A stretch of 64,000 nt of DNA from an uncultured Planctomycetales bacterium (GCA_964535935.1 CAZHWM010000020.1:65210-129209); one strand, 5' to 3'. Positions 18,219 through 53,074 are shown, numbered from the stretch's first letter. Notes: a model not told the origin generated them from the letters alone. Numbers and translations are program-made.

Positions 18219-18270
18219 ATTAAATCCTATACTAAAAAAATAAAAATTATTAGTTAACAATACATTTAGA

Positions 18271-18846: not shown

Positions 18847-18913
18847 AATCTTATCCTTTCTTACAACCACTATTATATAATTATAAACAACTATCAAAAA
18901 TTTCTATTATAAT

Positions 18914-19936: not shown

Positions 19937-20003
19937 GTTTATCTCACCTTTTACCCTAAAATAGCTATTTCTCATTATCTTAATATATATAAAATATCAT
20001 TCG

Positions 20004-20999: not shown

Positions 21000-21000
21000 A

Positions 21001-21999: not shown

Positions 22000-22636
22000 G
22001 TCCTTCCTCTTTATTTAGGTCATCTGGCCTTTCAATAGGTATCGTTTCCTTAATTAATCTAGTCGCTAAGGCAAAGCTATCTTCTGACTCGGAAACAGTA
22101 GGATTATACTTTGCAAACTTCACCATATCAGATGCTTGAAGAAATTGTTTCAATGTATCTTTTTGAAATTCTTTTAAAAAATCACAATTTTTTAATGATA
22201 TAAGGAATTCTTCCGTGGTCATCTCTGGTGCCCTAATTCTAAACCTTGCCTCAAAATAACTCCTAACTATATCAGATAGTCTTGAATAATACTCTTTATA
22301 GTTACCTTTAGCAATTAGCCCTTCTGCCTTCAATCGTTCTAATTCTTCAAATGCTATCTCCCATGGATTCTTCACAACTTCTTCTTCCTTAAATGTCTTC
22401 CTTGTTTTATCCTTATTTTTATACCATAACCAAATAATTCCAATTATTAGAGCCAAACTCAATACGATAATTATTATAATAAAAAATATATTTAAAGGCA
22501 TACTAACTGGTGGACGAACATCCTTTATGTCTCCTGCAAAAGCCTGAGAAGTCAAAAATAACATCACTATATTACACCCCAAAAACAATTTGCTTTTATA
22601 ATAAGAGATATCAAAATCTACTCTGGGAAGATTCAT
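21989..22636 (-). CDS. DUF4381-like membrane protein typical of MoxR/Bat operons
   Basis: Signal segment, single TM (IFFIIIIIVLSLALIIGIIWLWY), then NPWEIAFEELERL...YYSRLSDIVRSYFEARF...EMTTEEF, the usual pattern of this family. Confidence 0.55.
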   Translation of the reverse strand: MNLPRVDFDISYYKSKLFLGCNIVMLFLTSQAFAGDIKDVRPPVSMPLNIFFIIIIIVLSLALIIGIIWLWYKNKDKTRKTFKEEEVVKNPWEIAFEELERLKAEGLIAKGNYKEYYSRLSDIVRSYFEARFRIRAPEMTTEEFLISLKNCDFLKEFQKDTLKQFLQASDMVKFAKYNPTVSESEDSFALATRLIKETIPIERPDDLNKEEGHGV

Positions 22637-22666
22637 ACTATTGCTCCATAAAAATATACTGAAATT

Positions 22667-23647
22667 TTAATATCGTGACATTTTTCTTCGCCGAATAAAA
22701 AACCTGACAAGGGCATCTGTATATGACTGTGCTGTCGAAATATTAACATAGTCAATCCCGACAGACCTAAACATTTGTTCTCTTTTTTCTATTCTTAACA
22801 AATTAATTCGTCTATATTGCTCTCTCACGTTTTTATCAAAACAATCTATATAAACCTCCTTCCCCGATTCCGCATCACGTAATGCCACAATGCCACAATC
22901 AGGTAATTCATATTCTCTAGGATCATTTAAGGTTATAGCTATCATATCATGCCGTTTATTCGCAATGGACAATGTCTTTCTTAGAGTATCCTCTTCTGAG
23001 ACAATGCCCGTATCACTATTCATATTTTCTTCGAGGAAATCTGATATTAAGAAAGATATAGTACTCCTTGTAGTTATCTTGTTAAGATATTCAAGGGCTC
23101 CTACTATATCAGTCTTACCGCCTTTATATAAAATATCTCCATCAATACCGTTTATTTCATTAGATTTGTAATTCAAACTGGTTGCCTCAGCAATATATAA
23201 TATCTCCCTTATAACCCTTAATACATGCCCCCGGCCTTTTCTGGGAGGAATAAATCTATCTACCTTATCACTAAATACAATCAAGCCTACTTTATCATTA
23301 TTACGTATAGCAGAAAGGGCAAGCAAGGCAGAAATCTCTGCAGCAAGTCGTATCTTTAACATATTAACAGAAGCGAATAAAGACGATGGAGAAGCATCTA
23401 CCATAACCATCACAGTTAATTCCCTCTCCTCTACAAATTTCTTGACATATACTCTTCCCATACGTGCTGTCACATTCCAGTCGATAGTCCGGATATCATC
23501 TCCCGGTTGGTACTCCCTTACCTCTTCAAACTCTATACCTTCACCTTTAAATACACTATGATACTGTCCTGCAAATACATCTGAAACTAACCGGGAGGTA
23601 GTTATCTCAATACGTCTAATCTTTTGTAATAATTCTCTAGAAATCAT
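22667..23647 (-). CDS. DUF58 domain protein (MoxR-associated, VWA-like)
   Basis: GQYHSVFKGEGIEFEEVREYQPGDDIRTIDWNVTAR is the DUF58 signature. 4-nt overlap with moxR. Confidence 0.85.
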   Translation of the reverse strand: MISRELLQKIRRIEITTSRLVSDVFAGQYHSVFKGEGIEFEEVREYQPGDDIRTIDWNVTARMGRVYVKKFVEERELTVMVMVDASPSSLFASVNMLKIRLAAEISALLALSAIRNNDKVGLIVFSDKVDRFIPPRKGRGHVLRVIREILYIAEATSLNYKSNEINGIDGDILYKGGKTDIVGALEYLNKITTRSTISFLISDFLEENMNSDTGIVSEEDTLRKTLSIANKRHDMIAITLNDPREYELPDCGIVALRDAESGKEVYIDCFDKNVREQYRRINLLRIEKREQMFRSVGIDYVNISTAQSYTDALVRFFIRRRKMSRY

Positions 23648-24639
23648 GGCACTTCTATCTCATCGAATATTCTCTTTATAAGATCCTCTGAGGTCTTCTC
23701 CTCTGCCTCTGCTTCATAACTAATAATAATTCTATGGCGAAGCACGTCCAGCCCTATGGATTTAATATCCTGTGGTGTAACATATCCTCGTCCCTGTAAA
23801 AATGCATGTGCCTTAGATGCCAAAGCAAGAAAAATGGTAGCCCTTGGGGATGCACCATATTGAATTAAGGTCTTTATATCTTTTAAATTATATTCTTCCG
23901 GGGTTCGTGTAGCAGTAACTATATCCACTATATATTTCTCTATCTTCTCGTCCATATATATCTCATTAACCACAGAACGAGCCCTTAACAAATCCTCCGG
24001 GGATATGACTGCATTGACCTCCATGTTTGCAGAAGTTACCGCCATTCGCTGCAAAATCTTCAGTTCCTCTGCCTTATTTGGATAATCCACCTTCACCTTA
24101 AGCATAAACCGATCAACCTGCGCCTCTGGTAACGGATACGTCCCTTCCTGTTCAATCGGATTCTGTGTAGCAAGAACAAGAAAAGGATTATCTAATCGAA
24201 AAGTTTCTGATCCTATTGTAATCTGTCTTTCCTGCATGGCTTCAAGAAGTGCACTTTGCACCTTAGCAGGTGCACGGTTAATCTCATCCGCAAGAATAAT
24301 GTTAGCAAAAATAGGTCCTTTTTTTACGGTAAACTCACCGTTTTTTTGATCATAAATAAGCGTACCGGTTAGATCCGCAGGAAGCATATCAGGGGTAAAT
24401 TGTATACGTTGAAACCTTGTTTGAATGGTGGAAGATATGGTCTTAACTGCAGTAGTTTTTGCTAGCCCAGGTACCCCCTCTAAAAGTATATGTCCATCTG
24501 CCAATAAACCTATTAACAACCGCTCAAGCAAATCTCTTTGCCCCACAACCACTTTACGTGCTTCAAGCAATATTGCCTCAATAAAACTACTTTCTTTCTT
24601 AACCTTTTCATTGATTAATGTAATTTCATTATTTCCCAT
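23644..24639 (-). CDS. moxR: MoxR-family AAA+ ATPase
   Basis: VVVGQRDLLERLLIGLLADGHILLEGVPGLAKT (Walker A), ILADEINRA (Walker B). First gene of the Bat string. Confidence 0.9.
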   Translation of the reverse strand: MGNNEITLINEKVKKESSFIEAILLEARKVVVGQRDLLERLLIGLLADGHILLEGVPGLAKTTAVKTISSTIQTRFQRIQFTPDMLPADLTGTLIYDQKNGEFTVKKGPIFANIILADEINRAPAKVQSALLEAMQERQITIGSETFRLDNPFLVLATQNPIEQEGTYPLPEAQVDRFMLKVKVDYPNKAEELKILQRMAVTSANMEVNAVISPEDLLRARSVVNEIYMDEKIEKYIVDIVTATRTPEEYNLKDIKTLIQYGASPRATIFLALASKAHAFLQGRGYVTPQDIKSIGLDVLRHRIIISYEAEAEEKTSEDLIKRIFDEIEVP

Positions 24640-24798: not shown

Positions 24799-27700
24799 CT
24801 ATTTGAAGAATACATCTATCCGCTCTATCTTACGCTCGCGGACATCATTTGAATACGGAGAAGCAACGACATGAGAAGATATAGTAATCGGCCGTTTGCG
24901 ATTATGGTAAGTCAACGTTATTCCTTCCACCTGAACTGCATTTTCGCCAAACGTATTGCCACGTTTTGGATTATGGTAGACCACAATTGTCCCACCGAGA
25001 AAATTAAATGCATAGATATTCTCATGGAGTTCTATTTTCTTTCTAGTTCCTTTTATGTCAAAATATTCTAAGCATGTAGGCTCAGTAGTAAATATCCAAC
25101 CTGGTAGTGCAGGGTTAAAGGAAAGTATTAATTCTTTATTAGCATTTAAAGAAAACGGCTTTTTCCCAATATTCATATATAACCACATATGCAAAAACTC
25201 TGCTGTACTACCAGAAAGTCTTGCAACAAACCCCCTACCATGTAAAGAAGAATCATTATGTACACTACTTACAAGAAAAGACGAATTTTCAAAAATACTA
25301 CGCCCATATTGTTCAGGATTAAGAAATGGGATTAGTGTATTGCGAAAATTATCATAATATTCTTCAAACAAATCATTACGTAAAAGTTCTAGAAGAAATT
25401 TATATTCCATATGCAGCCATACAGATTCATTCTCTAACCACCCTTTAGGGAAAATCCTTGTCCGGCCTATCTCTTCTGTCTCAGTAGAAATATCAGCACT
25501 AACTTTATACATCTTTAACTTATGGTCAAACAAACCACTTTCCCTCACCTTAACGTATAATTGTCTTGCTTGTTCTTTATCTTTTGCCACCCTTAAGGCA
25601 TGGACATATCCTTCCAAAAAGGGTGGCAGCATATGTAGCTTAAATTTGGTTGGTCTAAGATAAGAGGTCCCTTCATTACCCCTGCCGTCTAAGAATTCAT
25701 ATTCTATAACCTCATGATAAAAATACGTACAAACTCCTCCATTACTATCTTTTGCCTTACTTACTGCCCCATCCACCCTCGCAACAACAAGATTCAGAAA
25801 ATTTTTAATCTCAGAAGCTGGCATCTGCTTCTCTTCACCACTTATGCCTATCCTCACCCTCTGTCTGTAATGTTCTTTTATATCATTTGATTTAAGCCAA
25901 TACTGATATGGATCTGTTTCAAAAGAAAGTAAATTACTTAATCCAGAGATAAAGGTAGCCAATTCCTCAAATACTGTCAAGCTATAATTATCATCCAATG
26001 CAAGTTGCTTTATAGCTTCCAATAAAAACGTAGCTAACCTTTTAATTTCATACGTCTCTGACACAGATGACCCTAATAATCCCGGTAGACCATTTAAAGA
26101 ATCATACCAGTTAGGTTTTTCTGCCTCCATCTCAACGCCTATGCCACTAGGATCTAAGCTAGCAATCTTGTTCGCTATCAGACACAATAACTTACAGACA
26201 AGATTTGTATAATAAACAGCCCCTGTTCCATTTTTAATCCTCAATTTATTTCCTTTACCAGCGGCATCTATTTCCTCAGCCCCATCAACAACACTATGAT
26301 ACTGACGTACTCCTCTATCTGTTAATATATAACGTCTATGACGAGGCAAAACATAATGAGAGTTAAGATAAAAACTAAATGACTTGTTATTTAACAACAA
26401 ATCTTCTAACTTTTCAGGATACAGCGATAGGTAACTTTCTATGATATCCATATTATACGTCCAATGATCCGTCCAAAACCCTTCCCCATGTTCAGCAATC
26501 TCCTGTTTACAGCACACCTCAAGTAAACGTCCCAAGAAATCCTTCATAGACAACTTTATTTGAATAGCTTTCTCCTCAATAAAACTAACCAATGCCCCAG
26601 GGAGGAACCCCTCTTTTATATACTCCTTTATGATATCAATAGATTTACCTTCAACATAAGAGTTCAAAATCTCATTAATTTTAGCATCTGTCTCTGGACA
26701 AAAAGTGGTGCCCTTCACTACCAATGGATTATAACCATCTGCTTGTATGAGATTAAGAAAATTTATGATATTACTATCACCAACGTCTGTATTAAACCAA
26801 ATATCATTTCTTCGATTCTGGTTAACATCCCTATAATTACCATTACCTTGAGAGTAGAAAGTAGGGGAAAGGAAAAAATAGTTATAATCTCTCTCCAAAT
26901 CCCCATGTTTGCGGCTATATACATTAAACGTAACATTACCTTCACTGGTCTTTATAGATACTGGAAATCCTCCTCTCAATACATTATCAAGAAACGTATG
27001 AGAAGAATATAAATCAAACTCTCTTGATGCACTTTTTGTTAAAGCAAAATTTCTAATACCTGCTATAATGGCCTCATTTTCTTCTGCCTTCTGTGCTATA
27101 AAACCAGGGTTAACTACCTGCTTAACAATCCTATCAACTTGTTCTTCACTATGTGCATACCCAAACAATGATACAATCTCTACCCTCTCCCCTGCCTTTA
27201 AGCTATATTTACCATACCCCATAGCAGAAGGTGTCCTATTCTCGGTGTGTTGTTGGTCTGGCAAAACAAATTCATCACTAAAAAACCTATATGGAGCAGT
27301 AAAATCACATACCCCACCAAATACACATGTACTATCTACTATTACATCTAATAAAGATAAACTCGAGTCTGCATTTTCATCTGTATTAAAAGAACCATTA
27401 CCTTTATCATGAAAAGAAAAAAAGAAATTGCCCTGACGAATGTGTGTAACCTCAGGTCTGTCACATACCTCTACTTTTAATCTATAATATGGTGTATTTT
27501 TATCTATCCCACATACATTAACCCATGCCTCTATGGTACGTGAAATATTTTTATTTAACACATCTGTCACTCCATATGGGACTATTAAAGGTATTCCATC
27601 TATAACCTCAATACCGCAATCATCTCCTCCTAAATTTTCAAATGTAACTCTCCTTACTAAAGCAGAATAAGGTTCCTGTGGTAATGTAAAATAATTAACC

Positions 27701-28125
27701 TTAATAGATAATCCCAATTCATAATTAATCTCTTCAAGAATAATATCATGAGCAGAAATAGATAAAGTCTGTCTTTTTTTAAAATCCGTACCAATAAGAC
27801 AACTCTGAAACGGTTCCCAATAATTACTCCCTTCAGACTTATTTACCTTAACAAAGCTACGAAATCCCTGTAAAGATACCAATCTATATGCCTTATTCGC
27901 AGGTTGAAACTCCATTATAGCTTTATCTTTTGATTCAATTCCAAAACTCGACACACACTGACCACGATTTACATAAAACACCCACATAGGTATTCCCCAA
28001 AGTCCAGCTATCCCGGGGAAGAAACTACTAAAAGGTTTACTTTTATTGTAATTCTCAATAACGAATCTTCCTCTACTATCAATATAATATTTAACCTTTT
28101 CTTCCGTTATGGAAAGATTGCTCAT
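24799..28125 (-). CDS. Large GH94-like (cellobiose/glucan phosphorylase-like) protein; function uncertain
   Basis: 1108 aa. N-terminal FFPGIAGLWGIPMWVFYVNRGQ and central GNGNYRDVNQNRRND (cf. the FRDSNQD motif of GH94-type phosphorylases). Recognition from memory only. Confidence 0.4.
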   Translation of the reverse strand: MSNLSITEEKVKYYIDSRGRFVIENYNKSKPFSSFFPGIAGLWGIPMWVFYVNRGQCVSSFGIESKDKAIMEFQPANKAYRLVSLQGFRSFVKVNKSEGSNYWEPFQSCLIGTDFKKRQTLSISAHDIILEEINYELGLSIKVNYFTLPQEPYSALVRRVTFENLGGDDCGIEVIDGIPLIVPYGVTDVLNKNISRTIEAWVNVCGIDKNTPYYRLKVEVCDRPEVTHIRQGNFFFSFHDKGNGSFNTDENADSSLSLLDVIVDSTCVFGGVCDFTAPYRFFSDEFVLPDQQHTENRTPSAMGYGKYSLKAGERVEIVSLFGYAHSEEQVDRIVKQVVNPGFIAQKAEENEAIIAGIRNFALTKSASREFDLYSSHTFLDNVLRGGFPVSIKTSEGNVTFNVYSRKHGDLERDYNYFFLSPTFYSQGNGNYRDVNQNRRNDIWFNTDVGDSNIINFLNLIQADGYNPLVVKGTTFCPETDAKINEILNSYVEGKSIDIIKEYIKEGFLPGALVSFIEEKAIQIKLSMKDFLGRLLEVCCKQEIAEHGEGFWTDHWTYNMDIIESYLSLYPEKLEDLLLNNKSFSFYLNSHYVLPRHRRYILTDRGVRQYHSVVDGAEEIDAAGKGNKLRIKNGTGAVYYTNLVCKLLCLIANKIASLDPSGIGVEMEAEKPNWYDSLNGLPGLLGSSVSETYEIKRLATFLLEAIKQLALDDNYSLTVFEELATFISGLSNLLSFETDPYQYWLKSNDIKEHYRQRVRIGISGEEKQMPASEIKNFLNLVVARVDGAVSKAKDSNGGVCTYFYHEVIEYEFLDGRGNEGTSYLRPTKFKLHMLPPFLEGYVHALRVAKDKEQARQLYVKVRESGLFDHKLKMYKVSADISTETEEIGRTRIFPKGWLENESVWLHMEYKFLLELLRNDLFEEYYDNFRNTLIPFLNPEQYGRSIFENSSFLVSSVHNDSSLHGRGFVARLSGSTAEFLHMWLYMNIGKKPFSLNANKELILSFNPALPGWIFTTEPTCLEYFDIKGTRKKIELHENIYAFNFLGGTIVVYHNPKRGNTFGENAVQVEGITLTYHNRKRPITISSHVVASPYSNDVRERKIERIDVFFK

Positions 28126-30901: not shown

Positions 30902-32080
30902 TCATTCAACAAACATTACATTGACAGCTACATTTCTCTTAACACGCTCTCCTTTAGGCAAAGAGCCAGAGCCAGACATATATTTCTTCTCATCGACTAT
31001 AACTACCTTTCCATCCTTTAAAAAATATCCCTTATTGCCAAACATCATCCTTATCCTATCTTTTTCCTTGCTAGCTGCTATCCTAACAGCGAGAGCATCT
31101 TTTGTGAACTGTTTTATTTGCCTCTTTACTAATCTTAGCCTTTCTCTATAAAAGGCCACCAATGTCTTCGCCTCTGTTATATTATTAACCTTTCCTTCAT
31201 AGTAGTCCAATTTCTTTTTTAATAGCGATAATTCCTTTACAAGTGTTTCATTTTTATTTTTAAGCTCAGCAATAGAATTCTGCAATCGTTTCTCCGCTTC
31301 AGTAATGGCATTAGGCCTAGAAATATTATTAGCTACCAATACTTCTTTTTCCTTTTTAACCTTTGCAAGCATCTGTTCTGTTTCTTTCAATATTGCCTTT
31401 GTCGCTTCCAATTCCTTCCCCATATTAAACAATAAACTTCTCTCTTCTTCATAAGAATGTTTTGCCTTGGCTAATTCTAATTTTATAGCCGAAAGTTCTG
31501 AAATAGAATCCGCTAACTTTTGTTGACTTTGTTTATATAAACTTGCATACCTATTTACTATATGTGACTGCATTGCCATTGCGGTTATCATCTCTCTATT
31601 TGCCTTATACATATTCTCATAAGCTGTGTAAGCTAACCATACAACATGTCCTGCCAATACAATAGCTACAACAATAAAAAAAATACTTAACATCCCTGTT
31701 ATCTGTCTTTTCTTTATAAGTTTTATAAGCTTCTTCTGTATTCGTTCTCCCAACCGCAATAATACATCATTACTACATTCCATAAATTTTACACCACATC
31801 TCCATCTATTTCCCGACATATTAAGTTGCTTACGCCAAACAACACGTCCCTTCTTAGGAACAACAAAATCCACATCAGGAGATTCAAAAAATAGTTCACT
31901 GCCTTCGTTAACAATGTCTCCTGACTCTCCTTCTAAAAGCATGCCAGATATACTAATATTACGGACTATACCTTGCCTCTTTTCTCTTTCATCCTGACTA
32001 TACCACAATATCCTACTATTCTCATCAACTCTCAAATGAGCTCTCGCATCCATAAAATTAGGATTTATTCTATTCCCCAT
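30902..32080 (-). CDS. PilZ domain - TM - coiled-coil protein
   Basis: N-terminal PilZ signatures RAHLR and NISISG. TM (ITGMLSIFFIVVAIVLAGHVVWLAY). About 180 aa of heptad-like coiled coil. Starts 18 nt after the stop of the giant ORF. Confidence 0.65.
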   Translation of the reverse strand: MGNRINPNFMDARAHLRVDENSRILWYSQDEREKRQGIVRNISISGMLLEGESGDIVNEGSELFFESPDVDFVVPKKGRVVWRKQLNMSGNRWRCGVKFMECSNDVLLRLGERIQKKLIKLIKKRQITGMLSIFFIVVAIVLAGHVVWLAYTAYENMYKANREMITAMAMQSHIVNRYASLYKQSQQKLADSISELSAIKLELAKAKHSYEEERSLLFNMGKELEATKAILKETEQMLAKVKKEKEVLVANNISRPNAITEAEKRLQNSIAELKNKNETLVKELSLLKKKLDYYEGKVNNITEAKTLVAFYRERLRLVKRQIKQFTKDALAVRIAASKEKDRIRMMFGNKGYFLKDGKVVIVDEKKYMSGSGSLPKGERVKRNVAVNVMFVE

Positions 32081-32098
32081 ATCAATAAATCCCCCTTT

Positions 32099-35000
32099 TT
32101 ATAACCCCAACTCAATTGCATCAAGTGCCTCAGCTATAATCTCTCCCCTACTCTTACCATGTCCTTCAACATTCGAAACAACACCCTTCTTCTTCCCTAT
32201 GACATCGCTCACTTTTGTCTCTTTCCCACCCTCTGAAGAAAAATTTATGCCTATCTTCTTCTCCTCATCCGAAACAAAATTTCCCAGTTCGTTAGAGTCT
32301 GACTCAAACATCTTTTTACCAAAGGCCTGTTCTTTATCTAATATTCTATCTATTTTATAGAGGTAAACTCGAACCTTTTTATATTTAGGCCTCATTTGTT
32401 CTATATCATTAAATATCCTCTGCGACTCTTTATATAGTCCCTTTTTATACAACTCGATTGCCCTATTATATAAATCACTAAGACTTCTCTCAAATTCAAG
32501 GAGTATCTTGTGTCGCTCTAACTGTAACTTCCGTTTCTTAACCTCTATAGTCTTTTTTTTATGATTCAAACCTTCTGCTTTTTTTGAAATATTAATACTT
32601 TTTTTCTTTTGTTTCTCAACAATCGGACTTTTTCCTGCGGTTAAAATTTTCTTCTTACTATTATCAGTACAAAACCTCTGCCTCTTTAGTCTATTTTTCT
32701 CTCGTTTTTTCTTCAAAAGTCTCTGATGCTCTCTTTCTTTCTCTTTCTCAATCCGAATACGTGCAAGCTCCTTCTCCCTCTTTAATCTCTCTTCTTCCTC
32801 GTGTATCTTTCTCTCAAGTCGCTCTATCTCTGTTCGCCTTCTCTCTTCAATTCGCTTCTGTGCCTCTGCTAACCTTCTATCTCTCCGCTGAACAATTTGC
32901 TCCTTTTTTTGCCGTTGCTTATCAAATAGCTTCTTAATCCTTCCCTTGTCAATATTTATCCTCTTTTTCATAATAGAAACATATTCCTTAGAAAGTCCGG
33001 AGGAAACCAATAATTCTTCACATTCATCAAATTTTGATATAGCTAAACTATACTTACCACTATCCCTTAAATCCAATGCCTCTCTATACATCTTATCTAT
33101 CCTTAATTTAATTCGTTCCATCTCTTGCCTTTCTCTCCGCTGCTTCTCTCTCTGTTTCAAGATAAAAATTCTTTTTTCTGTGAGTCTAATACGTCTGAAC
33201 AATCTATCTATACGGCATCTTGCCTTCTTAACATATGAAATAGGAAGCCCTTTTTTATTACTCACAAACTCTCTATACAATGTCAACTTAGACCTAGCCA
33301 AATCTGTCCTCTGTTCTTTACATAATCTTACTGCTTCCTTATACATTTTGTCTGCCTGACGAATTAATAACATACGGTACTTCTTTTTATCCAATTCTGG
33401 TTTAACCTTACATGAACGTAAATTAGGTTTCCTATTTTTCATATTCTTATTACGTTCTTCATCTTTACCTATCTTTTTACAACTTATCTTTTGTATAAAA
33501 TGTCCTTCTTTTTTCTTATTATTTAGATACTCTTTACTTTTTTTCTTATTACTTCTTAAATTTTTTTTACTTTTTGCCTCTCTATCTATACTAACAATTT
33601 TCGATTTGTTTTCCTCTACCTCTAAAACTTTTTGATTATTTCCTTTTATCTTCTCATCTAGTTGTATCTGAAGATTGCAATTCTCTATATAAGCCTTAGC
33701 AGATCTATATCCAGGCCACATTAACTCCACAGAAGAAAACTTTGCTTTCGCTTTTACATACTCACCTAATCCATAAAGTCGTAAGGCATCTTTATACAAA
33801 GCAGCCACTGTAGATGCCAGCCGCCTTTTCTCCTCTTTATCTTTAAAAAATAGTAACCTCTTTATCTTCTTCTGCTGATAGGTCAATTCCTTCCTTTGTA
33901 ATAGTTGCTTTCTAGTATATTTCAAATGTCTCTTAGCTAGTCTATTTTTTCTCTTAAACTTTCTTTCTCCTGAAGAAATCTTTGACTTTCTATTCTCTCT
34001 TTCCTTCAACCGATTCAATCGTTCTTCTTTCCTTTTTTTAGCTATCTCTTCTTTCCTTTTTCTCTTTAATTCACGAAGTTCCTTTCTCCTCAGCAGTCTT
34101 TGCCTGCGTTCTTCTCTTCTTTTAGCTAACTTCTCTTCTCTTTTCTTACGTCTTAATTCCTCCCTTTCTCTCTTTTCTTTTAATGCCTTTTCCCTTTGTT
34201 CACGTCTACGATCCTCTATCTCCTTCTTTAACCTCCTACTAATTTCCTTTCTTACTTTCTTTTTAAAAATCTCTCCCTTTTGTGTTAATTTAACCTGCTT
34301 TTGTCCTAAAACATTTACTTTAAAGTTATCTTGTTTGTTTTGTAACTTTTCCTTTTCCCGATTTTTCTCTCTTTTCCTTGCCAGAATCCTTTCCCTTTTT
34401 TCTTCCTTCATTTGTCTCTGAAAATCTCGTTCCATACGCCGTTCCATTTTATCCATCTCTCTCTCTGCCTTATCAAAACTCGCTTGCTTCTTCAACAGCA
34501 TCTTTCTAAATGCCTTCTGTAGCTCCTTCTCCTGCATCTGCCTACGCCTCTCCTGTGCCTTTATCTCAAATACCCTGCGCCTACTCTCTGCCCTAAGTTT
34601 TAATTCCTCTTTTTCTTCTTTAGAAAGGATTTCATCTCCTTTCTTTTCCCATGCATATAAAATCTTTTTCTGCTTATAAACTTCTTCCTTATACCTTTTC
34701 TTCTTCAGATGTTTTAACCTTCCCGCAATCTTTCTTTCTATCCTCTTTAAATATCTTTTAGTAAACCTATATCCCGGACATAAACTCTCCACCTCTTTAA
34801 AAAGCTCACGTGCAGCACTAAATTTCTTTTTTCTATATAATACTACTGCCTTATGATAAATCTTTGATATTTTATCCTTCTTGTTTTTATTTTCTTTAAT
34901 AACATTCTTTTCTTTGCTATTATTAGAAGCACCTCTAACTAATTCTTTTTGAATAACAACCCTATTCTGTCTATTAGAAACTACTCTTTTTGTCTGTTCA

Positions 35001-36907
35001 CGTTCTTTCTTCTTTCGAATATCCTCGTCTATATGGCTAAGATATTTTAATGTATCCTTATATCCAGGATAATATGCTTCTAACTCCAAAAATTTTATTT
35101 TAGCCTCTTTAAATCGTTCCAATTTATATAATCGTAGCGCTGCTTCATACTTCTGTCTTGCCTCCCTTCTCATCCTTCTACGTCGACGCTCTATTGCCTT
35201 ACGCACAACAAATTCTTCATCTTTACTAATTATCGGTTTCCCACCCTTAGCCAGCTTACTACCAATACTACCCTGTTTTTTCTTTACATCTACGGATGAC
35301 TCTCCATTAGCTAACTTATTCTCCACCTCCTTAGCAGATGACAATATACTATCAATTTTTTCAAGATATCTTGATGTAAGTTTATAATTAGGAAACATCC
35401 GTTCTACCTGCAGAAAAATATCTTTTGATTTTTTATATTTTTTATTTTTATAAAACAAAACCGCTTGCCTATAAAAATTTCTTGCCTTAGCTTTAAGCTC
35501 ATGCTCCCTTTGGATCTTTAATAATCTTTCTTCTTTTTTCCGCCTTGCCTCTTTACGTTTCTTGGCAAGTTTCTCTCTTCGCAATTGCTTTAACCACTCC
35601 TTTTGTTGAGATAAAATACGTCTCTGCTCTTGTTTCCGTTTAAACTCTTCTCTCTCCCGCGCCAACTTTTCTTCACGAGCCTTACGCCTTGCCTCTAACC
35701 GTGCCTGTCGTTCTTTTTCTCTCTTTTTAGCCTCTTCTCTCTTTCGTGCCAACCTTTCCTGTTTAATTTGTTCTAATTTCTCTTGTTCAAAGGCTAGCTG
35801 TTCTTCATATTTTTTTCTCTTCTGCTCAAGGAGAGCTAATCGTTCTTGCCGCCTTTGTTCAATCCTCTTCTTCCTTCGCGCCAACCTCTCTTGTTTTATT
35901 TTATGTAATAATCGTATCTTTCTTTCTCGTTCTGCCTTTCTTATATCATGTTTTATACACCGCAAATAATATCTTGTCAGTTTATATCCCGGGGACAGCT
36001 GATCAATCTCAAAAAATGCCTCTTTAGCCTTCGCATATTCCCCTTTCTTATACAAAGCCACTGCATCTTTATAAAATAGTTCTATCTCCTCATCAGATAT
36101 ACCTACTTCAGCAGTATCAATTTCAGGAATGTCTGAATATACCTTATCCTTATAAATATCATCCAAAAAAGAGGGTGTATAAGTATGCCCATCATAATAA
36201 TTCCCCCTATCACAAATTTTATCTCTTACCATTCTACTCCCACCAGCCGAAGTTGAATGAAGGATAGCTTCTTCATTATTATTTATAAGCATAAGATACC
36301 CTCGAGTGGCTTTATAGTCTGGTAAGATGGCCTCTAAATATTCAAATCTCTTACGCGCTTCTTCATATTTTCCCTGTTTATAAAGAAGTATTGCTTTTTG
36401 ATAAGTTCCTTCTATATCTGCTGAATCAGAAGAAAGTTCCAGTTTAAGCTCATTTAATATTCTCTTCTTTTTTTTCTCCAAATCTGACTTTTGCTGCTTC
36501 ATACGCTCAATGCTTGCCTTCATGTAATCCTTAATCTCTTGACACCTCGAAAGTTTAAGTGCCATATCCCATAAGGCATCTGCCTCCCCATACTTACCTT
36601 CCACAAAGAATCGCATCCCTTTTTCATAATATTCCCATGGTCGTTCTCCCTTAGGAAGATATCTATCCTCTTGAACAGAGGCCTTTGCATCTGCACTTAA
36701 ACCATCTATCTCTTTCATAAAACGATTAAAGGCCTCTTCTGAATAAATATCTTCCTCTTCTCCCTTAGAGACAAGAGAATCCGCATTATTTGCACTAAAA
36801 GAATAAGGGACATATAAAACACAGAAAATACACATATAGATAAAAAGACAGAAGAATAAAAAATTATTATTTTTTTTATTTTGAATATCCATATGGAAGG
36901 ATTCCAA
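32099..36907 (-). CDS. Giant (1602 aa) E/R/K-rich protein with N-terminal signal-like segment and ten TPR-like modules
   Basis: Uninterrupted ORF (TTG 36907; ATG 36892 gives MDIQNKKNNNFLFFCLFIYMCIFCVLYVPYSFSA). Repeated module xYxxAxxLYKxGxYxxAKxxFxxxExxxPGYKxTxxYLxxI, separated by highly charged helical spacers. Confidence 0.7.
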   Translation of the reverse strand: MESFHMDIQNKKNNNFLFFCLFIYMCIFCVLYVPYSFSANNADSLVSKGEEEDIYSEEAFNRFMKEIDGLSADAKASVQEDRYLPKGERPWEYYEKGMRFFVEGKYGEADALWDMALKLSRCQEIKDYMKASIERMKQQKSDLEKKKKRILNELKLELSSDSADIEGTYQKAILLYKQGKYEEARKRFEYLEAILPDYKATRGYLMLINNNEEAILHSTSAGGSRMVRDKICDRGNYYDGHTYTPSFLDDIYKDKVYSDIPEIDTAEVGISDEEIELFYKDAVALYKKGEYAKAKEAFFEIDQLSPGYKLTRYYLRCIKHDIRKAERERKIRLLHKIKQERLARRKKRIEQRRQERLALLEQKRKKYEEQLAFEQEKLEQIKQERLARKREEAKKREKERQARLEARRKAREEKLAREREEFKRKQEQRRILSQQKEWLKQLRREKLAKKRKEARRKKEERLLKIQREHELKAKARNFYRQAVLFYKNKKYKKSKDIFLQVERMFPNYKLTSRYLEKIDSILSSAKEVENKLANGESSVDVKKKQGSIGSKLAKGGKPIISKDEEFVVRKAIERRRRRMRREARQKYEAALRLYKLERFKEAKIKFLELEAYYPGYKDTLKYLSHIDEDIRKKKEREQTKRVVSNRQNRVVIQKELVRGASNNSKEKNVIKENKNKKDKISKIYHKAVVLYRKKKFSAARELFKEVESLCPGYRFTKRYLKRIERKIAGRLKHLKKKRYKEEVYKQKKILYAWEKKGDEILSKEEKEELKLRAESRRRVFEIKAQERRRQMQEKELQKAFRKMLLKKQASFDKAEREMDKMERRMERDFQRQMKEEKRERILARKREKNREKEKLQNKQDNFKVNVLGQKQVKLTQKGEIFKKKVRKEISRRLKKEIEDRRREQREKALKEKREREELRRKKREEKLAKRREERRQRLLRRKELRELKRKRKEEIAKKRKEERLNRLKERENRKSKISSGERKFKRKNRLAKRHLKYTRKQLLQRKELTYQQKKIKRLLFFKDKEEKRRLASTVAALYKDALRLYGLGEYVKAKAKFSSVELMWPGYRSAKAYIENCNLQIQLDEKIKGNNQKVLEVEENKSKIVSIDREAKSKKNLRSNKKKSKEYLNNKKKEGHFIQKISCKKIGKDEERNKNMKNRKPNLRSCKVKPELDKKKYRMLLIRQADKMYKEAVRLCKEQRTDLARSKLTLYREFVSNKKGLPISYVKKARCRIDRLFRRIRLTEKRIFILKQREKQRRERQEMERIKLRIDKMYREALDLRDSGKYSLAISKFDECEELLVSSGLSKEYVSIMKKRINIDKGRIKKLFDKQRQKKEQIVQRRDRRLAEAQKRIEERRRTEIERLERKIHEEEERLKREKELARIRIEKEKEREHQRLLKKKREKNRLKRQRFCTDNSKKKILTAGKSPIVEKQKKKSINISKKAEGLNHKKKTIEVKKRKLQLERHKILLEFERSLSDLYNRAIELYKKGLYKESQRIFNDIEQMRPKYKKVRVYLYKIDRILDKEQAFGKKMFESDSNELGNFVSDEEKKIGINFSSEGGKETKVSDVIGKKKGVVSNVEGHGKSRGEIIAEALDAIELGL

Positions 36908-37157
36908 TGATAAATATATTTTTATATTAATTATTATTTAATATATATTAAATAAGTAAATATATTTTATCATATTTAAATATATTTCTCTTATTTTTTT
37001 ATATTAATTTTTATATTAAAATTATATTTTTCATGATAATTTTAGAATTTAGAATTAAATTTTATTATATCTTTTATAAAAATAAAAAATTGCTAGGACA
37101 AAAAAGGAGGGAACATTATAAAAAAATTATAATTTATTGTTCAAATTTAAATACTAA
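36908..37157. promoter_or_regulatory. Extreme A/T tract upstream of the giant ORF (probable promoter/UP-like or curved DNA region)
   Basis: By my hand count, 24 G/C in 250 nt and only 10 G/C in 36908-37090. Repeated tttttatattaat and tttagaatttagaatt motifs. Confidence 0.4.
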
Positions 37158-38696
37158 CTAATCTTTCATATCTTTTTCCGAAAATACATCTGCAGTAAAG
37201 ACCTCTAATTTAGTCCTTGGGTCTTTCCATGCATCAGGTGGAAGACCTGCCTTTTGAGAACATAACTCAGATAAAAACTTTTCTTTACTCCACCCTGTCT
37301 CTTTTGCTACCTGAGGCAAGAATACCCCTTGATGAAATAACCCCTGACTTACAATAACTCCGTGAACTCCTAGTTTTATCTCATCTGCACTCTTAACAAC
37401 ATGTGGCTTACTCAACACAGATATCTCAATCTCTATATCATTTAATTCATCCTCTTTTAATGGTGGGAATCTGGGGTCCTGAGAGGCTGCTGCAATTGCC
37501 ATATCTCGTACTGTAAGATAAAGTGGACCACGTCCAATTATATTTCCTATACATCCCCTTAAAATACCATGTTTTGTTATGGTAACAAAGGCACCCTCTT
37601 CCTTGCACAACCTCGAATCTGTTTCCCTAACATTCAAAATCTTACCTGTTTTGACAAACTGTTCAATAGCCTTACGCGCTATATCAATAAGCCGTTTCTT
37701 CTGTTCCTTTGTTAAAGCAGGGACCTCATAAGTATCTTTGTTAACCTTAGAATTATTATCAGTATCATAGATTACAACTGACGAATACCCAACTACTCTT
37801 GAACTATCTCCTGTAACATCTGCTGAAGTAGCGTATTTTAACACCTTAACATTCTCTGGGCCTAATCCTTTAGCACGTGCATAAAGCAATGCTGCTGTAA
37901 CTGGGACATATCCACATAATTCCATCGTTCTTACTTTGTTTTCTTTCCATAAACGTTCCGCATCTAATGCCTTTAATGCCTCTAATGTATGTTTATCTAT
38001 CTTTCTAGCAAATGCATCATTATGAAAATGGGACATATCCGTACTCACCACTATGAGGATATCTTTACGACTACCTATAACCTTCAAAAGGGTATTGGCA
38101 AAATCTTCAACAGTCTTAAAATCTGGCTGTCCCATAATAATAGGAACTATCTTAAAGTCCTTAAATACTCTCTGCAGAAAAGGTAACTCTACTTCTATGG
38201 CATGTTCTTTCTCAAATGCCTTTGGTTCAAAATAAAAATTATCGTTAGCTGATATTATCTTTTCTGCCAATTCACGATCTACATGGATAATACCCAACGG
38301 TGTCTCAAACCCATCATGAAGAGATACCGAAACGCCTGAGAATGGAAGATAATGACTAGGAGCTATAATAATAATAGTAGAATATTTATTCTTACTAGCA
38401 GCCTTAAATCCATATGCAGCCACCCATCCCGAATACATATACCCTGCATGAGGAGATATAATTATATCTATATGGTGATCCAAAGGAGTTAGATCTGCTC
38501 TGTGCAAAAATGCATCTACTTCAGAAGCAAGCTGGCCAGAATTACTAGGATAAAATTGACCCGCTACATTAGGCCGTTTGATATTCTCTTCCGCATAGCT
38601 CATTATATTTATATCTCCAAGTTGAAAAAATACGAATAAAAAAACTATAAATAAAAAAGAAAAGCTTTGCCATTTATATTTTTTCCTATATATCAT
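37158..38696 (-). CDS. Fusion of Memo-like (AmmeMemoRadiSam system protein B) and AMMECR1 (protein A) domains
   Basis: NVAGQFYPSNSGQL, IISPHAGYMYSG and VSTDMSHFH (Memo). GAFVTITKHGILRGCIGN and QDPRFPPL (AMMECR1). Hydrophobic N-terminal 30 aa if translated from ATG 38696. Confidence 0.85.
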   Translation of the reverse strand: MIYRKKYKWQSFSFLFIVFLFVFFQLGDINIMSYAEENIKRPNVAGQFYPSNSGQLASEVDAFLHRADLTPLDHHIDIIISPHAGYMYSGWVAAYGFKAASKNKYSTIIIIAPSHYLPFSGVSVSLHDGFETPLGIIHVDRELAEKIISANDNFYFEPKAFEKEHAIEVELPFLQRVFKDFKIVPIIMGQPDFKTVEDFANTLLKVIGSRKDILIVVSTDMSHFHNDAFARKIDKHTLEALKALDAERLWKENKVRTMELCGYVPVTAALLYARAKGLGPENVKVLKYATSADVTGDSSRVVGYSSVVIYDTDNNSKVNKDTYEVPALTKEQKKRLIDIARKAIEQFVKTGKILNVRETDSRLCKEEGAFVTITKHGILRGCIGNIIGRGPLYLTVRDMAIAAASQDPRFPPLKEDELNDIEIEISVLSKPHVVKSADEIKLGVHGVIVSQGLFHQGVFLPQVAKETGWSKEKFLSELCSQKAGLPPDAWKDPRTKLEVFTADVFSEKDMKD

Positions 38697-41581: not shown

Positions 41582-42154
41582 TCATGGTGCAATAACGAAC
41601 GCCTTAGAATAGTCCTTTCTTACATTCTGTAAAAAGTTATTTGCCTCCTTCTTAGTAGAAAACCTTCCAATGTAAACTCGATACCAAATCCCCTTCTTGC
41701 CCAAATCTCGTGTTCCTAAATATGCTTGATATCCTTTTTTCTGAACCTCTACCAGAACATCATGGGCTTTACTTTTAGTTTTAAAAGATGCTACTTGTAT
41801 AGTAAATTTTCCCAACCGAGCAATGGTATTAGATTTATTAGTAACACCCGTTCTTGCTTTTTTAGCTACATTTTTTATATGCGACATACTAGAAGATGCT
41901 GCTTCATGCCTTACCGTTTCCTTTGCTTTTATAGACATTCCAACATCCACACCTTCTTTTTTTGTAGATGCAGGGTGTTCTTCATTATCCATAAATTCAT
42001 ATTCAACATCCACAGGCATAGTCTCATCTTCCGGGAAAATTTCATTTAAAGATACTCTTGCCTTCCCGTTAAAAGTAAAATGATAATTAAAAGCTACTAG
42101 CACTGTTATAATCACTACCAATATAAAAATCCAAACAAGCCATGAATTTCTCAT
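41582..42154 (-). CDS. SPOR domain membrane protein
   Basis: N-terminal TM. C-terminal FTIQVASFKTKSKAHDVLVEVQKKGYQAYL...WYRVYIGRFSTKKEANNF (SPOR). ATG 42154 is preceded by ggagga; the track ORF starts at 42181. Confidence 0.8.
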   Translation of the reverse strand: MRNSWLVWIFILVVIITVLVAFNYHFTFNGKARVSLNEIFPEDETMPVDVEYEFMDNEEHPASTKKEGVDVGMSIKAKETVRHEAASSSMSHIKNVAKKARTGVTNKSNTIARLGKFTIQVASFKTKSKAHDVLVEVQKKGYQAYLGTRDLGKKGIWYRVYIGRFSTKKEANNFLQNVRKDYSKAFVIAP

Positions 42155-42204
42155 TTTATTTCCTCCATCTATTACTATCAATGCTTTTCACATTTATATA
42201 CAAA

Positions 42205-43572
42205 TTACTTCTCTCCTTTATTGAATCTAAGTAAATCCCAAACTATATCCCAGAAAGACAACTTTTTGGGCATCTGTGATACCGCATCTTCCACACGATT
42301 TTTACATATAGTCGTCCTTCTATCATACCAACCAAATGTATCGCCATCCGCTTCAATAAGGATACCAATTCTAGCAGTAGCAGGCTCAAGTATAATTATG
42401 CCTAAACGTGTATGTTGCATAATAACATAATGTCCACCTGGTATCCAGCGGAAATTCTTTAAGGTTAAATCTCCTCCTCTATATTGATACCTTGGTATAT
42501 CACTAATAACTGGCCGTCTTGTTATCTTATAAAGTCTCTTCCTGAACCATTTATTTTTTACAAAATATAAATTATCTTTATCATCTATCCCAATATAAGA
42601 ACCGTTCTCTGAAATAAAACAATCCTTTTCTTTAAACTTAGAAAATATAAATCGTTCACCATTAAGAAAAAGTTTAATATGCCTAATTGCTAACTGTTCT
42701 ATAGGCAGAGAAGCTTCTCTTGATGGTATTTCAGCTACAAATTCTGGAGTTAGCTTAGTTAATGATATACGATAAATTATTATCTCATATGCATATGGTT
42801 GAATAGAGGTGTCTTGAAGCTTGTAATGAAAAAAGTAAATATTTTCCCCCTTTCTATCCCAATAAAGTACATTTTGTTTTTGAAAGAATCCCTTAACCTG
42901 CTGTCTTCTATTCTTTGTCAAATCATAAATATACATATTATGCCTATCTGAATACTTCGACCATCTAGCTATAACATAACAAAAATGCCTACTATCAGGA
43001 GACCATTGTAACGAACTTATCCCCCTGTGTAAATCTGTGTCATTATTAGTGTTAAGAAGGGATTCAACAACAAACCATTTTCCTGTCTTAAGATTCATAC
43101 AATATAGCTCTCTAGGACTAGAAACTAACAAATATCTACCATCTGGTGAAAAATCATATTCACGTATAGGTTCATTAGTTGTAAGTAATACTTTAGGATT
43201 ACTACCATTAATACCTACTGTCTTTAGTTGATTATCTTTAATAAAATAAATCCTAAAATTTTGTTTTACCCAATGTGTGTTAGATGACAACATCTTAGAG
43301 AAATCTAAAACTTCTGCTGGGCTTTTATAATTTATCCAATATAAATAAGTGAAAAGAACTAAAAAAAATGCCTGAATACACATTACAATAATATTCATCA
43401 TATATACAGCCACACGGTTAAAATCCACCTCTCGTAATTTCAAAGCTATCAAAACAAGTAAAAACATAAAAATTATTGAGATATTAATAGCCATTAATAT
43501 CTCAAAATTATTGCTCAAAAATTGTATAATAAGTCGAAATGCCTCTTTTATCTTATCTATATCTATAACCAC
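42205..43572 (-). CDS. Membrane-anchored protein with TolB-like beta-propeller repeats
   Basis: Two N-terminal TMs, then DFSPDGRYLLVSS and LQWSPDSRHFCYV repeat signatures. Confidence 0.5.
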   Translation of the reverse strand: MVIDIDKIKEAFRLIIQFLSNNFEILMAINISIIFMFLLVLIALKLREVDFNRVAVYMMNIIVMCIQAFFLVLFTYLYWINYKSPAEVLDFSKMLSSNTHWVKQNFRIYFIKDNQLKTVGINGSNPKVLLTTNEPIREYDFSPDGRYLLVSSPRELYCMNLKTGKWFVVESLLNTNNDTDLHRGISSLQWSPDSRHFCYVIARWSKYSDRHNMYIYDLTKNRRQQVKGFFQKQNVLYWDRKGENIYFFHYKLQDTSIQPYAYEIIIYRISLTKLTPEFVAEIPSREASLPIEQLAIRHIKLFLNGERFIFSKFKEKDCFISENGSYIGIDDKDNLYFVKNKWFRKRLYKITRRPVISDIPRYQYRGGDLTLKNFRWIPGGHYVIMQHTRLGIIILEPATARIGILIEADGDTFGWYDRRTTICKNRVEDAVSQMPKKLSFWDIVWDLLRFNKGEK

Positions 43573-43593
43573 AATACAATTACTCTCCTTTCT

Positions 43594-44535
43594 CTAAAAC
43601 AAATGCAACCTTATAACAGACAGTCTATTCCTAAGGGTTTTTCCTGCCTGCTTCAAAGCATATACCTTAGTATTTAATATAGCAGACTTTTCGACTGCAC
43701 CGAACCTTTTTATGATGCGACTGTAATAATCATATCCCTCAGCATATCCCCCATTCTCAACAAAAGATTTCCTTAAAAAGTATGCTGCTTTATTATATGC
43801 TCCAAGTTTATATAAGGCCATTCCTAAAAAACACAAACAATAATCCTTATCAGCACATGTGTCAAGTGCAATACATCGCTGTGCTAAAATTACTGTATGT
43901 TTATATTGTTTTAAATAATAATATCCAGCCAAACGTAACAACTCCGCCTTACATCTACCTTGTTTTAACCTCTGCTCTATTCCCGCAGCAAAATCATTAT
44001 CTGTATTTAATATACTCCTATGCAGTGTTTGAGGTGAACGAATATACATAAGACTTAAAGCAGGAGATGAAACTAACGATTTATCAAACATCTTAACAGC
44101 ATCTTTATACCTGCCTTGCTGAAAGTATATCACACCCAAATTATAATAATACCAAAAAAAATTAGGGTTTAGTTCAATAGCCTTTAATAAACTCTCTTCT
44201 GATTTCTTATATTCTCCCAACCAATAGTAACAAAATGCTAAAATCCCATAAGTCTCTGCTCTTGTAGGATCTAATTTTTGAAGCTGTTTATAATAAGCGA
44301 TATAATCCATAAATTCCTTCTTATCTACCTTGTCCTTACCCTCACTAACATTGATAAGATTATGTAAGGAATCAGGTACAAACATATTTACTCTGGCTAT
44401 TTTGCAAGCAGTTATCGAAGCCTTAATTTCCTCATAGGAACCCACTATCCCATAGCCAAGAATAACCAATAACAATATGCTCACAACTAATCTAATACCA
44501 TTTATTTTTAATTTATTATCTGAAAAATATTTCAT
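43594..44535 (-). CDS. TPR repeat protein with N-terminal TM
   Basis: AETYGILAFCYYWLGEYKKSEESLLKAIELNPNFFWYYYNLGVIYFQQGRYKDAVKMFDKSL. Confidence 0.7.
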   Translation of the reverse strand: MKYFSDNKLKINGIRLVVSILLLVILGYGIVGSYEEIKASITACKIARVNMFVPDSLHNLINVSEGKDKVDKKEFMDYIAYYKQLQKLDPTRAETYGILAFCYYWLGEYKKSEESLLKAIELNPNFFWYYYNLGVIYFQQGRYKDAVKMFDKSLVSSPALSLMYIRSPQTLHRSILNTDNDFAAGIEQRLKQGRCKAELLRLAGYYYLKQYKHTVILAQRCIALDTCADKDYCLCFLGMALYKLGAYNKAAYFLRKSFVENGGYAEGYDYYSRIIKRFGAVEKSAILNTKVYALKQAGKTLRNRLSVIRLHLF

Positions 44536-44603
44536 AATCTCTTATCTGCAAGTATTAATTTACTAACTCTATAAAGCTATATTCGACTACCAAATAATAA
44601 AAT

Positions 44604-45851: not shown

Positions 45852-46052
45852 AACGTCCTTATGGAGAGATAAAAATGATAAAAAGAATATATTAGTGACA
45901 CAATAATAAATTTTTATTTGAGGAGAAGCTAAATAAAAAAATTAAAATAGCACAATTACTACATTATGCTCAATAATATACTAAAAGATTATAGTTTATT
46001 TATCTTCTATCAATCCAAAATAAATACATTTAAACTTATATTACACTACGAT

Positions 46053-51174: not shown

Positions 51175-51195
51175 ATATAAATCCCCTTAAAAATA

Positions 51196-51822: not shown

Positions 51823-51853
51823 AATACCATCTCCTTTTTACCCACATACCATT

Positions 51854-53069: not shown

Positions 53070-53074
53070 AAGAA

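Follow-up and report, generated by a model that had tools for sequence, protein, structure and literature searches.

A 64,000-nucleotide (nt) stretch of DNA from an uncultured bacterium of the candidate phylum Omnitrophota (the window; positions are counted from its first letter) carries on its minus strand a giant gene and, directly downstream, a gene for a PilZ-transmembrane (TM)-coiled-coil protein, here called the partner. The giant protein has ten tetratricopeptide repeat (TPR)-like modules separated by long, charged spacers. As the two genes are kept together across the phylum Omnitrophota, they probably form one cell-envelope module. The reading that we prefer, with a probability of about 0.5, is that the giant is an exported scaffold in the form of a rod and that it acts, in envelope or surface architecture, together with a stalk protein of the inner membrane, whose cyclic di-GMP (c-di-GMP) input is optional. 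The two families form a real, conserved and undescribed pair that is built from known parts (TPR, ER/K helix and PilZ) and is not a categorically new system. A first-pass annotation of the window had not recognized the architecture as a described system, and the literature on Omnitrophota giant proteins, PilZ, coiled coils and AsmA likewise held no description of the TPR-rod family with its PilZ-TM-coiled-coil partner. Preprints on these giant proteins mention pilZ genes after mega-genes, or giants with TPRs, but neither this family nor this partner.

The locus was laid out as follows, in the order of transcription.

36908-37157, minus strand: upstream 250-nt tract, 90.4% A+T, with a putative promoter-like TTGAAC-18-TATAAT at 37144-37115
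32099-36907, minus strand: giant gene; 1602 amino acids (aa) if started at a TTG, but the likelier start is the ATG at 36892, giving 1597 aa
36791-36892, minus strand: signal peptide or signal anchor (aa 6-39: MDIQNKKNNN-FLFFCLFIYMCIFCVLYV-PYSFSA), then an acidic stretch
32081-32098, minus strand: intergenic spacer of 18 nt, holding the Shine-Dalgarno sequence AAGGGGGA for the PilZ gene
30902-32080, minus strand: PilZ-TM-coiled-coil gene, 392 aa
30794-30835, minus strand: terminator-like hairpin (-24.9 kcal/mol, z -6.2, by folding), followed by GUUUUU

This layout agreed with the first-pass annotation in the extent of the 1602-aa open reading frame (ORF), the 18-nt gap to the PilZ-TM-helical protein, and the AT-rich and hairpin flanks. 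A minor correction concerned the start codon, for which both public gene callers and alignment with a 65 to 74%-identical orthologue pointed to the ATG at aa 6, giving 1597 aa. The upstream tract was the most AT-rich 250 nt in the window (top 0.03% of 250-nt windows). The hairpin was not flagged by a simple terminator scan, and its confirmation came from folding.

A hidden Markov model built from the ten copies of the module returned exactly ten copies in the giant, at the positions where modules of approximately 41 aa had been reported in the first-pass annotation. The modules and the main spacers are listed below.

36512-36634, minus strand: module 1 (aa 92-132), divergent TPR plus capping helix
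36284-36406, minus strand: module 2 (aa 168-208), scoring 37 bits with the Pfam TPR_2 model (cutoff, 27 bits)
35954-36076, minus strand: module 3 (aa 278-318)
35477-35953, minus strand: spacer aa 319-477, 69% E/R/K/Q, net charge +34, within a predicted continuous helix of 177 residues (~26 nm)
35354-35476, minus strand: module 4 (aa 478-518)
35030-35152, minus strand: module 5 (aa 586-626)
34739-34861, minus strand: module 6 (aa 683-723)
33800-34738, minus strand: spacer aa 724-1036, 313 aa, 62% E/R/K/Q, net charge +69, without heptad periodicity
33677-33799, minus strand: module 7 (aa 1037-1077)
33212-33346, minus strand: module 8 (aa 1188-1232), degenerate
32960-33091, minus strand: module 9 (aa 1273-1316), degenerate
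32474-32959, minus strand: spacer aa 1317-1478, 162 aa, 57% E/R/K/Q, net charge +30
32351-32473, minus strand: module 10 (aa 1479-1519), with its lead-in the best-conserved part across the giant family
32102-32152, minus strand: C-terminal motif SRGEIIAEALDAIELGL; many giant-family members share an ALD.(I/F)(E/D) tail

Each module is a single TPR plus a capping helix. The Pfam TPR_2 model was matched above threshold by one module (module 2), and the module profile matched designed consensus TPRs at E values of 9e-7 to 6e-6. The best alignment covered the last repeat and the solvating helix of the designed protein CTPR3, and YbgF (2xev) and BamD (3qky) also aligned. The assignment of one TPR plus a capping helix follows from the TPR_2 match and the CTPR3 alignment. 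The module has the 34-residue helix-turn-helix of the TPR motif with its pattern of small and large residues; no tandem array of at least three adjacent TPRs with a superhelical groove was present in the giant, in which the modules are isolated and lie 35 to 313 aa apart.

An AlphaFold model of aa 255-741, computed from the single sequence, had a predicted local distance difference test score (pLDDT) of 82 and a predicted template modeling score (pTM) of 0.30. Every module was modeled as helix A, turn, helix B, turn and helix C, forming separate three-helix units. The spacer prolonged helix C without interruption until it became helix A of the following module. One such unbroken helix had 177 residues (~26 nm; pLDDT, 78 to 96) and another had 74, while one 38-residue linker was disordered. 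A Foldseek search of this segment against solved structures gave nothing significant (best E value, 0.04), and the weak matches were all TPR proteins.

The three large spacers contained 57 to 69% E/R/K/Q and 18 to 23% hydrophobic residues, and each had a net positive charge, so that their earlier description as E/R/K/Q-rich stood while the words "almost entirely" were a slight overstatement. Power at a period of 3.5 residues was below the mean, and there were 0.33 to 0.40 opposite-charge pairs per residue at i/i+3-4. A canonical coiled coil was dropped for these spacers because of the lack of a heptad signal. ER/K single alpha-helices (SAHs) are rich in E, R and K, have i/i+4 ion pairs, lack heptads and, like spectrin, are known above all from cytoplasmic proteins of eukaryotes. 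The composition of the giant's spacers, their dense opposite-charge pairs, the missing heptad periodicity and the long lone helices in the AlphaFold model all resembled those of ER/K SAHs, and the spacers are thus predicted to be of this type rather than coiled coils, in support of the charged-single-helix option raised in the first-pass annotation. There is a further likeness to spectrin, in which the last helix of one bundle continues as the first helix of the next. Unlike SAH proteins and spectrin, the giant would lie in a bacterial periplasm, its bundles are TPR-derived, and these bundles are far shorter than the connectors.

The pair was intact on an ENA contig and in two Logan assemblies, all with an identical PilZ protein, and also in relatives whose PilZ proteins are 87% and 75% identical. 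Interruption of the ORF in other assemblies had been named beforehand as a sign of a pseudogene or artefact; it was uninterrupted across several independent assemblies. Comparison with an orthologue detected 85% identity in the modules versus 63% in the spacers and an insertion of 72 aa within one spacer. These results indicated that the module knuckles are constrained and that spacer length is plastic, unlike the pattern of a low-complexity artefact. The artefact or pseudogene explanation was rejected on the basis of the intact ORF in independent assemblies and the better conservation of the modules.

A search of 5.8 billion proteins detected 32 relatives of the giant, with lengths of 918 to 2301 aa and identities of 23 to 37%, the sole named one being from Omnitrophica, and a metagenome scan with a three-sequence C-terminal alignment gave two short contigs only. 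The giant family appears to be restricted to Omnitrophota. Its members (n = 36) have 6 to 21 modules, with spacing modes of 60 to 79 and 90 to 109 aa. An N-terminal hydrophobic core with a small-x-small site was found in all 36, accompanied by a charged n-region in 32; a lipobox was found in none of the 36, and the mature N terminus was mostly acidic. Distant homologues had canonical AxA signal-peptide sites, with AHA before Q or AFA before D, and the window's giant had one hydrophobic segment only (~aa 13-40). From the classical signal peptides across the 36 members, the lack of a lipobox and the acidic mature N terminus, we infer that the giant is best regarded as a Sec-exported, soluble, nonlipidated protein, in line with the exported protein with an N-terminal signal-like segment that had been proposed. 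A cytoplasmic, membrane-anchored filament, in which the giant faces the cytoplasm and could contact the PilZ domain directly, would suit a composition like that of cytoskeletal and ER/K proteins and an N-terminal hydrophobic core that in the window lineage is long enough for a TM anchor. The charge distribution around this core (KK before, acidic residues after) and the canonical AxA signal peptides of distant homologues indicate export instead, and we consider such a filament very improbable.

K makes up 17% of the giant, E 12.5% and R 12%; it has 470 K+R versus 264 D+E residues and a net charge of +206. Since its coding strand is rich in purines (K, E and R codons), the region 32001-36000, where the skews of the window are strongest, has a marked AT skew (-0.26 to -0.38). 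It was proposed in the first-pass annotation that the filament might bind polyanions, and the basic spacers of the window lineage, all large ones being net positive, could in principle bind lipopolysaccharide, peptidoglycan-associated polymers, DNA or polyphosphate. The high basicity was real in the window and recurred in a handful of relatives, at +153 to +191, but the majority of giant-family members are near neutral (-33 to +93). The charge of +206 is a lineage-specific property, common to only a few relatives; polyanion binding cannot, therefore, be the conserved function of the family, and even as a property of the window lineage it is improbable.

The partner contains the following elements.

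31763-32044, minus strand: PilZ domain at aa 13-106 (Pfam E value, 4.9e-8); motifs RAHLR (aa 13) and NISISG (aa 41)
31631-31699, minus strand: TM helix at aa ~128-150, with the basic stretch RIQKKLIKLIKKRQ on its N-terminal side
31034-31630, minus strand: predicted periplasmic helical region of ~200 residues, with helices to aa 250, 256-294 and 301-349
30995-31039, minus strand: signature GN(N/K)GYFxKxG beta-hairpin; 30 of 30 partner-family members keep G348, N349 and G351

The basic stretch ahead of the TM helix argues for an N-in topology. An AlphaFold model of the partner (pLDDT, 71) had a beta-barrel at residues 18-99, a basic juxtamembrane helix and a TM helix running from ~128 on to 250, followed by helices at 256-294 and 301-349 and then by a small beta-hairpin, with a disordered tail at the end. 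Foldseek matched this model to PilZ domains only (PP4397, MotI, PlzA, YcgR and Alg44; E value, ~5e-5), and the six-stranded beta-barrel characteristic of PilZ was present in strands at aa 18-99. The RxxxR and NxSxxG motifs were both retained in all 11 of the PilZ-bearing partners examined; the domain is a candidate for c-di-GMP binding. The canonical N-terminal PilZ domain, single TM helix and long helical part noticed in the first-pass annotation were thus all recovered by Pfam, motif and fold analyses. When the sequence of the PilZ protein was compared with those of solved structures, only coiled-coil noise was obtained, and the helical region matched no known domain, with generic coiled-coil matches only.

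An exhaustive profile search for the partner in 1.84 billion representatives gave 317 matches at E values of ≤1e-3, 197 at ≤1e-10 and 123 at ≤1e-30. Most were of 330 to 420 aa and matched end to end, and a minority of 240 to 270 aa lacked PilZ; all of the named members among the matches were from Omnitrophota. In a sample of 30 members, Pfam detected PilZ in 23 and otherwise coiled-coil noise only, while GN(N/K)GY was invariant. Two loci departed from the usual gene structure. At the P0008 locus, PilZ (135 aa) and a 241-aa helical protein are encoded by separate adjacent genes; if the latter is the TM-coiled-coil partner, this would be a split version of the window's fused protein. At positions 6370-6530 of locus L015, the PilZ frame (RRSPR and NISTSG intact) continues upstream of the first ATG, GTG or TTG, which points to either a noncanonical start codon, perhaps ATT, or an error in the assembly.

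Co-occurrence of the two genes was sought from the partner side in species-representative genomes and from the giant side by contig look-ups. Identical loci were merged (L019 = L010), and contigs cut before the upstream region were set aside (L004/L005, L013 and L018). A giant gene lay upstream of a homologous partner in 14 of the 19 informative lineages (the window, P0002, P0003, P0008, L009, L010, L014, L015, L017, L020, L021, L022, L025 and L028). The giant was found together with a PilZ/TM-coiled-coil gene even in divergent relatives at 25 to 35% identity, and the expectation that the pair should co-occur in related genomes was thus borne out. The short-giant loci (L011, L026 and L027) had a nonhomologous protein of the same design, with an N-terminal TM helix and ~270 helical residues, in place of the partner. 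The recurrent gene order was a ~3200-aa Ig-like/DUF11 protein (in most lineages), the giant, a DsbH-like thioredoxin protein (at some loci), an AsmA-like protein, the (PilZ-)TM-coiled-coil protein, YgjP, YggU, YqeY, a CE4 deacetylase and a ~1100-aa protein. An AsmA-like gene stood between giant and partner at L009, L010, L013-L015, L017, L019-L022, L025, L028 and the P0008 locus. The two-gene unit of the first-pass annotation was therefore conserved as a pair, but the unit is usually larger, with the AsmA-like gene inside and the ~3200-aa gene upstream. A tblastn search of the window found neither of these two genes, and in the window clade neither lies nearby, yet the pair is 18 to 20 nt apart. 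This retention of adjacency despite the loss of the intervening genes is the strongest argument that the two proteins act together. Coupling is also consistent with the separate Shine-Dalgarno sequence within the 18-nt gap, the single flanking hairpin and the recurrent giant-partner order.

Two accessory proteins of the block were prominent. The protein directly upstream of the giant in most lineages (at least nine loci) has 2900 to 3500 aa with DUF11, Big_6 and SpaA-like Ig domains, and proteins of this type were located at L009 1-7866, L010 2-7927, L011 1-8004, L025 263-8989, L026 and L027, with 39 to 72% identity among lineages. A protein of 650 to 760 aa with a DsbH-type thioredoxin and a six-hairpin (GlcNAc-2-epimerase/GH88-like) domain often follows the giant directly (L014 5822-8104, L025 15268-17394, L011 11777-13738, L026 12956-14932 and L027 12502-14544).

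On the preferred reading, the giant chain would consist of stiff single-helix rods of 10 to ~47 nm each, joined by conserved three-helix TPR knuckles, with a total length of roughly 100 to 170 nm if extended; it is the continuation of helix C of one knuckle, as a long charged helix, into helix A of the next that suggests a string of rods. This scaffold would work with the downstream bitopic inner-membrane protein, which would present a ~200-residue helical stalk and the conserved beta-hairpin in the periplasm. In the window lineage, c-di-GMP levels could be relayed outward to the scaffold through the cytoplasmic PilZ domain, in a form of "inside-out" signaling. In most lineages, the module would also take in the AsmA-like protein as an intermembrane bridge and the ~3200-aa Ig-like surface protein. 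The AsmA-like family bridges two membranes for lipid transport (PMC8593681, PMC11126948), and the association with AsmA-like and giant Ig-like proteins suggests that the module helps to build, space or anchor structures of the envelope or surface. A more specific and distinctly less probable version is a periplasmic skeleton or molecular ruler without a described bacterial counterpart, in which SAH rods of defined length with TPR knuckles would be tethered at intervals to PilZ stalk proteins and remodeled from inside by c-di-GMP, and would, with the AsmA-like lipid bridge and the Ig-like surface protein, set the envelope spacing or anchor a surface layer in ultra-small, possibly predatory cells; we regard it as speculative.

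Several observations weigh against the preferred reading. Contact between giant and partner is presumed from gene order, and the giant model was built from a single sequence and had a low pTM. In the window lineage, the long h-region and the atypical, poor residue at -3 make cleavage uncertain, and the signal segment may persist as an anchor. Several lineages carry a TM-coiled-coil protein without PilZ, so that the PilZ domain and motifs of the c-di-GMP receptor proposed in the first-pass annotation are real, but the c-di-GMP input is an add-on that is not essential to the module. One locus (L012) has a giant without such a partner nearby, and another (L016) has a partner without a giant. Finally, the conserved block also contains clearly unrelated housekeeping genes (YgjP, YggU, YqeY, the CE4 deacetylase and GH161), and the adjacency may therefore be partly inherited gene order. 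These last points, together with the genes that may intervene between the pair (AsmA-like, DsbH-like), would be expected if the giant and the PilZ protein were functionally independent, one an exported TPR scaffold and the other a c-di-GMP receptor, and stayed adjacent through slow gene-order change in Omnitrophota. Such independence is harder to reconcile with the 18- to 20-nt gap in the clade without intervening genes, with the analogous TM-plus-long-helix gene found beside that of the giant even at loci where no homology can be detected, and with the confinement of both families to the same phylum. We consider it unlikely.

The partner resembles Alg44 in its cytoplasmic N-terminal PilZ domain, single TM helix and periplasmic C-terminal part. 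Alg44 has 389 aa, nearly the length of the partner. A synthase-dependent exopolysaccharide secretion module, with the partner as an Alg44-like co-polymerase (Alg44 serves in alginate synthesis), the giant as an AlgK/PelB/BcsC-like scaffold and the CE4 enzyme as a PgaB-like deacetylase, would be in keeping with this likeness, with the match of the partner's PilZ model to Alg44 PilZ structures and with the match of the deacetylase to PgaB (E value, 8.6e-28). However, apart from a small beta-hairpin, the periplasmic part of the partner is wholly helical; Foldseek matched no membrane-fusion-protein fold, and Pfam gave no HlyD-type match in 30 members. No Alg8-type, GT2 polysaccharide or other glycosyltransferase synthase was found in the conserved block, the nearest GT2 gene in the window lying ~22 kb away; the giant has no C-terminal beta-barrel that could act as a porin; the ~1100-aa neighbor is a cytoplasmic GH161 beta-1,3-glucan phosphorylase; and housekeeping genes stand between the deacetylase and the pair. 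Together, the missing synthase, membrane-fusion fold and porin and the GH161 neighbor largely refute this machine, which we regard as scarcely credible.

In the LapD-LapG-LapA system, which is an example of inside-out c-di-GMP signaling, the receptor LapD has a degenerate GGDEF-EAL and a LapG-binding periplasmic domain. The locus described here shares with it the concept of a c-di-GMP receptor that faces the cytoplasm, has its output part in the periplasm and is encoded beside very large exported proteins. By analogy, the PilZ stalk could relay c-di-GMP outward and the TPR rod could hold or release the ~3200-aa surface protein, whose gene is so often next to that of the giant and whose C terminus has TPR-like motifs resembling the giant's first module. 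Small soluble pilZ homologues have also been reported after the genes of Omnitrophota multi-enzyme mega-proteins, the "Archaeovorins" (bioRxiv 10.1101/2023.11.21.568195), a likeness that extends to the phylum and to the conservation of pilZ genes after very long genes; AsmA and coiled coils are unmentioned in that paper, and its mentions of TPRs concern other giants. Against such retention, the partner's receptor domain is PilZ, its only domain, and no degenerate GGDEF-EAL or LapG-binding domain was found in it. Neither a LapG-type protease nor type I secretion genes nor LapD-type GGDEF-EAL domains turned up; the window has no relative of the ~3200-aa protein; and PilZ is optional. A Lap-like retention mechanism is, in our judgment, improbable.

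The scaffold of the preferred reading was also compared with known TPR proteins. The polar hubs FimV/HubP/TspA are likewise large, highly charged scaffolds with single, dispersed rather than tandem TPR units, and FimV/HubP provides the closest analogue of a dispersed "single TPR plus capping helix" unit (bioRxiv 10.1101/116954). They differ in that FimV has a periplasmic LysM domain, an internal TM segment and cytoplasmic TPRs, whereas the giants have an N-terminal signal segment only, 10 to 21 modules and long single-helix spacers; no Pfam or NCBIfam match to LysM or to the FimV C-terminal domain (TIGR03504) was obtained for the giant at E values of ≤0.1. Among natural proteins, the nearest sequence matches to the module lie in the TPRs of two exported envelope proteins, CpoB (YbgF) and BamD, and CpoB also joins a helical coiled coil with TPRs. 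Both are small and have contiguous TPR arrays, unlike the giant, which has no lipobox and lies outside a conserved tol-pal or bam context. The CpoB model was absent among the NCBIfam matches of the giant, whose neighbors are Memo-AMMECR1 and the PilZ protein and not a tol-pal operon; the BamD model TIGR03302 gave 36.2 bits versus a cutoff of 81.4. Two giant relatives bear the JGI automatic labels "TolA-binding protein" and "BamD."

Omnitrophota are uncultured, very small and possibly parasitic or predatory, and to our knowledge almost nothing is known of their envelope. The locus would represent a conserved, phylum-specific envelope set comprising a long exported scaffold of unusual design, a membrane stalk protein in which c-di-GMP input is optional, a bridge protein of the AsmA-like type and a giant Ig-like surface protein. 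If the rod model is true, ER/K single helices would serve here, outside the cytoplasm, as spacers that define length, a use rarely seen in bacteria, and c-di-GMP signaling would gain a new output route. If the genes are functionally unrelated, the giant would still constitute a new, well-defined family, which databases label only as "TPR."

Other genes of the window were noted in passing. The ~1100-aa protein of the block corresponds in the window to a 1108-aa protein without a Pfam match (24799-28125, minus strand), identified as GH161 beta-1,3-glucan phosphorylase by its match to PDB 9qqk (E value, 5.6e-219). With 50 to 60% identity across divergent Omnitrophota, it is better conserved than any other gene product of the block, and it suggests the use of laminarin-type glucans. 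A complete Bat-type (aerotolerance) operon at 15559-24639 (minus strand) encodes MoxR AAA, DUF58, DUF4381, BatA-VWA, BatB-VWA, TPR, FMN reductase, BatD and TPR+SH3 (BatE-like) proteins, and in L001, L006 and L007 the GH161 gene is likewise followed by MoxR, DUF58 and VWA genes. Directly upstream of the AT-rich tract lies a gene for a Memo-AMMECR1 fusion protein (37158-38696, minus strand; 512 aa) with an N-terminal hydrophobic segment. Farther upstream, an envelope cluster at 41582-46544 (minus strand) encodes SPOR-domain, weakly TolB-like (455-aa), Tgl/PilW-like TPR and PG_binding_1 proteins, the Tgl/PilW-like protein being 30% identical to a TPR protein encoded ahead of the PilZ partner in L004. 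GC skew was negative in nearly all 2-kb bins of the window (1-64000; down to -0.47), and the genes are mostly on the minus strand. An 842-aa STT3/PglB-like oligosaccharyltransferase is encoded at 10153-12681 (plus strand) beside GT2 and methyltransferase genes, and a glycan cluster at 49269-63556 contains DegT, PIG-L, WbqC, three GT4, FkbH-like and MBOAT genes; together they suggest protein or surface glycosylation. No GGDEF, EAL or HD-GYP gene was detected among the scanned window ORFs of at least 150 aa. A chemotaxis set at 876-7438 (minus strand) comprises CheA (two Hpt matches; CheW domain at the C terminus), CheW and a 985-aa methyl-accepting chemotaxis protein with a CZB zinc-binding domain.

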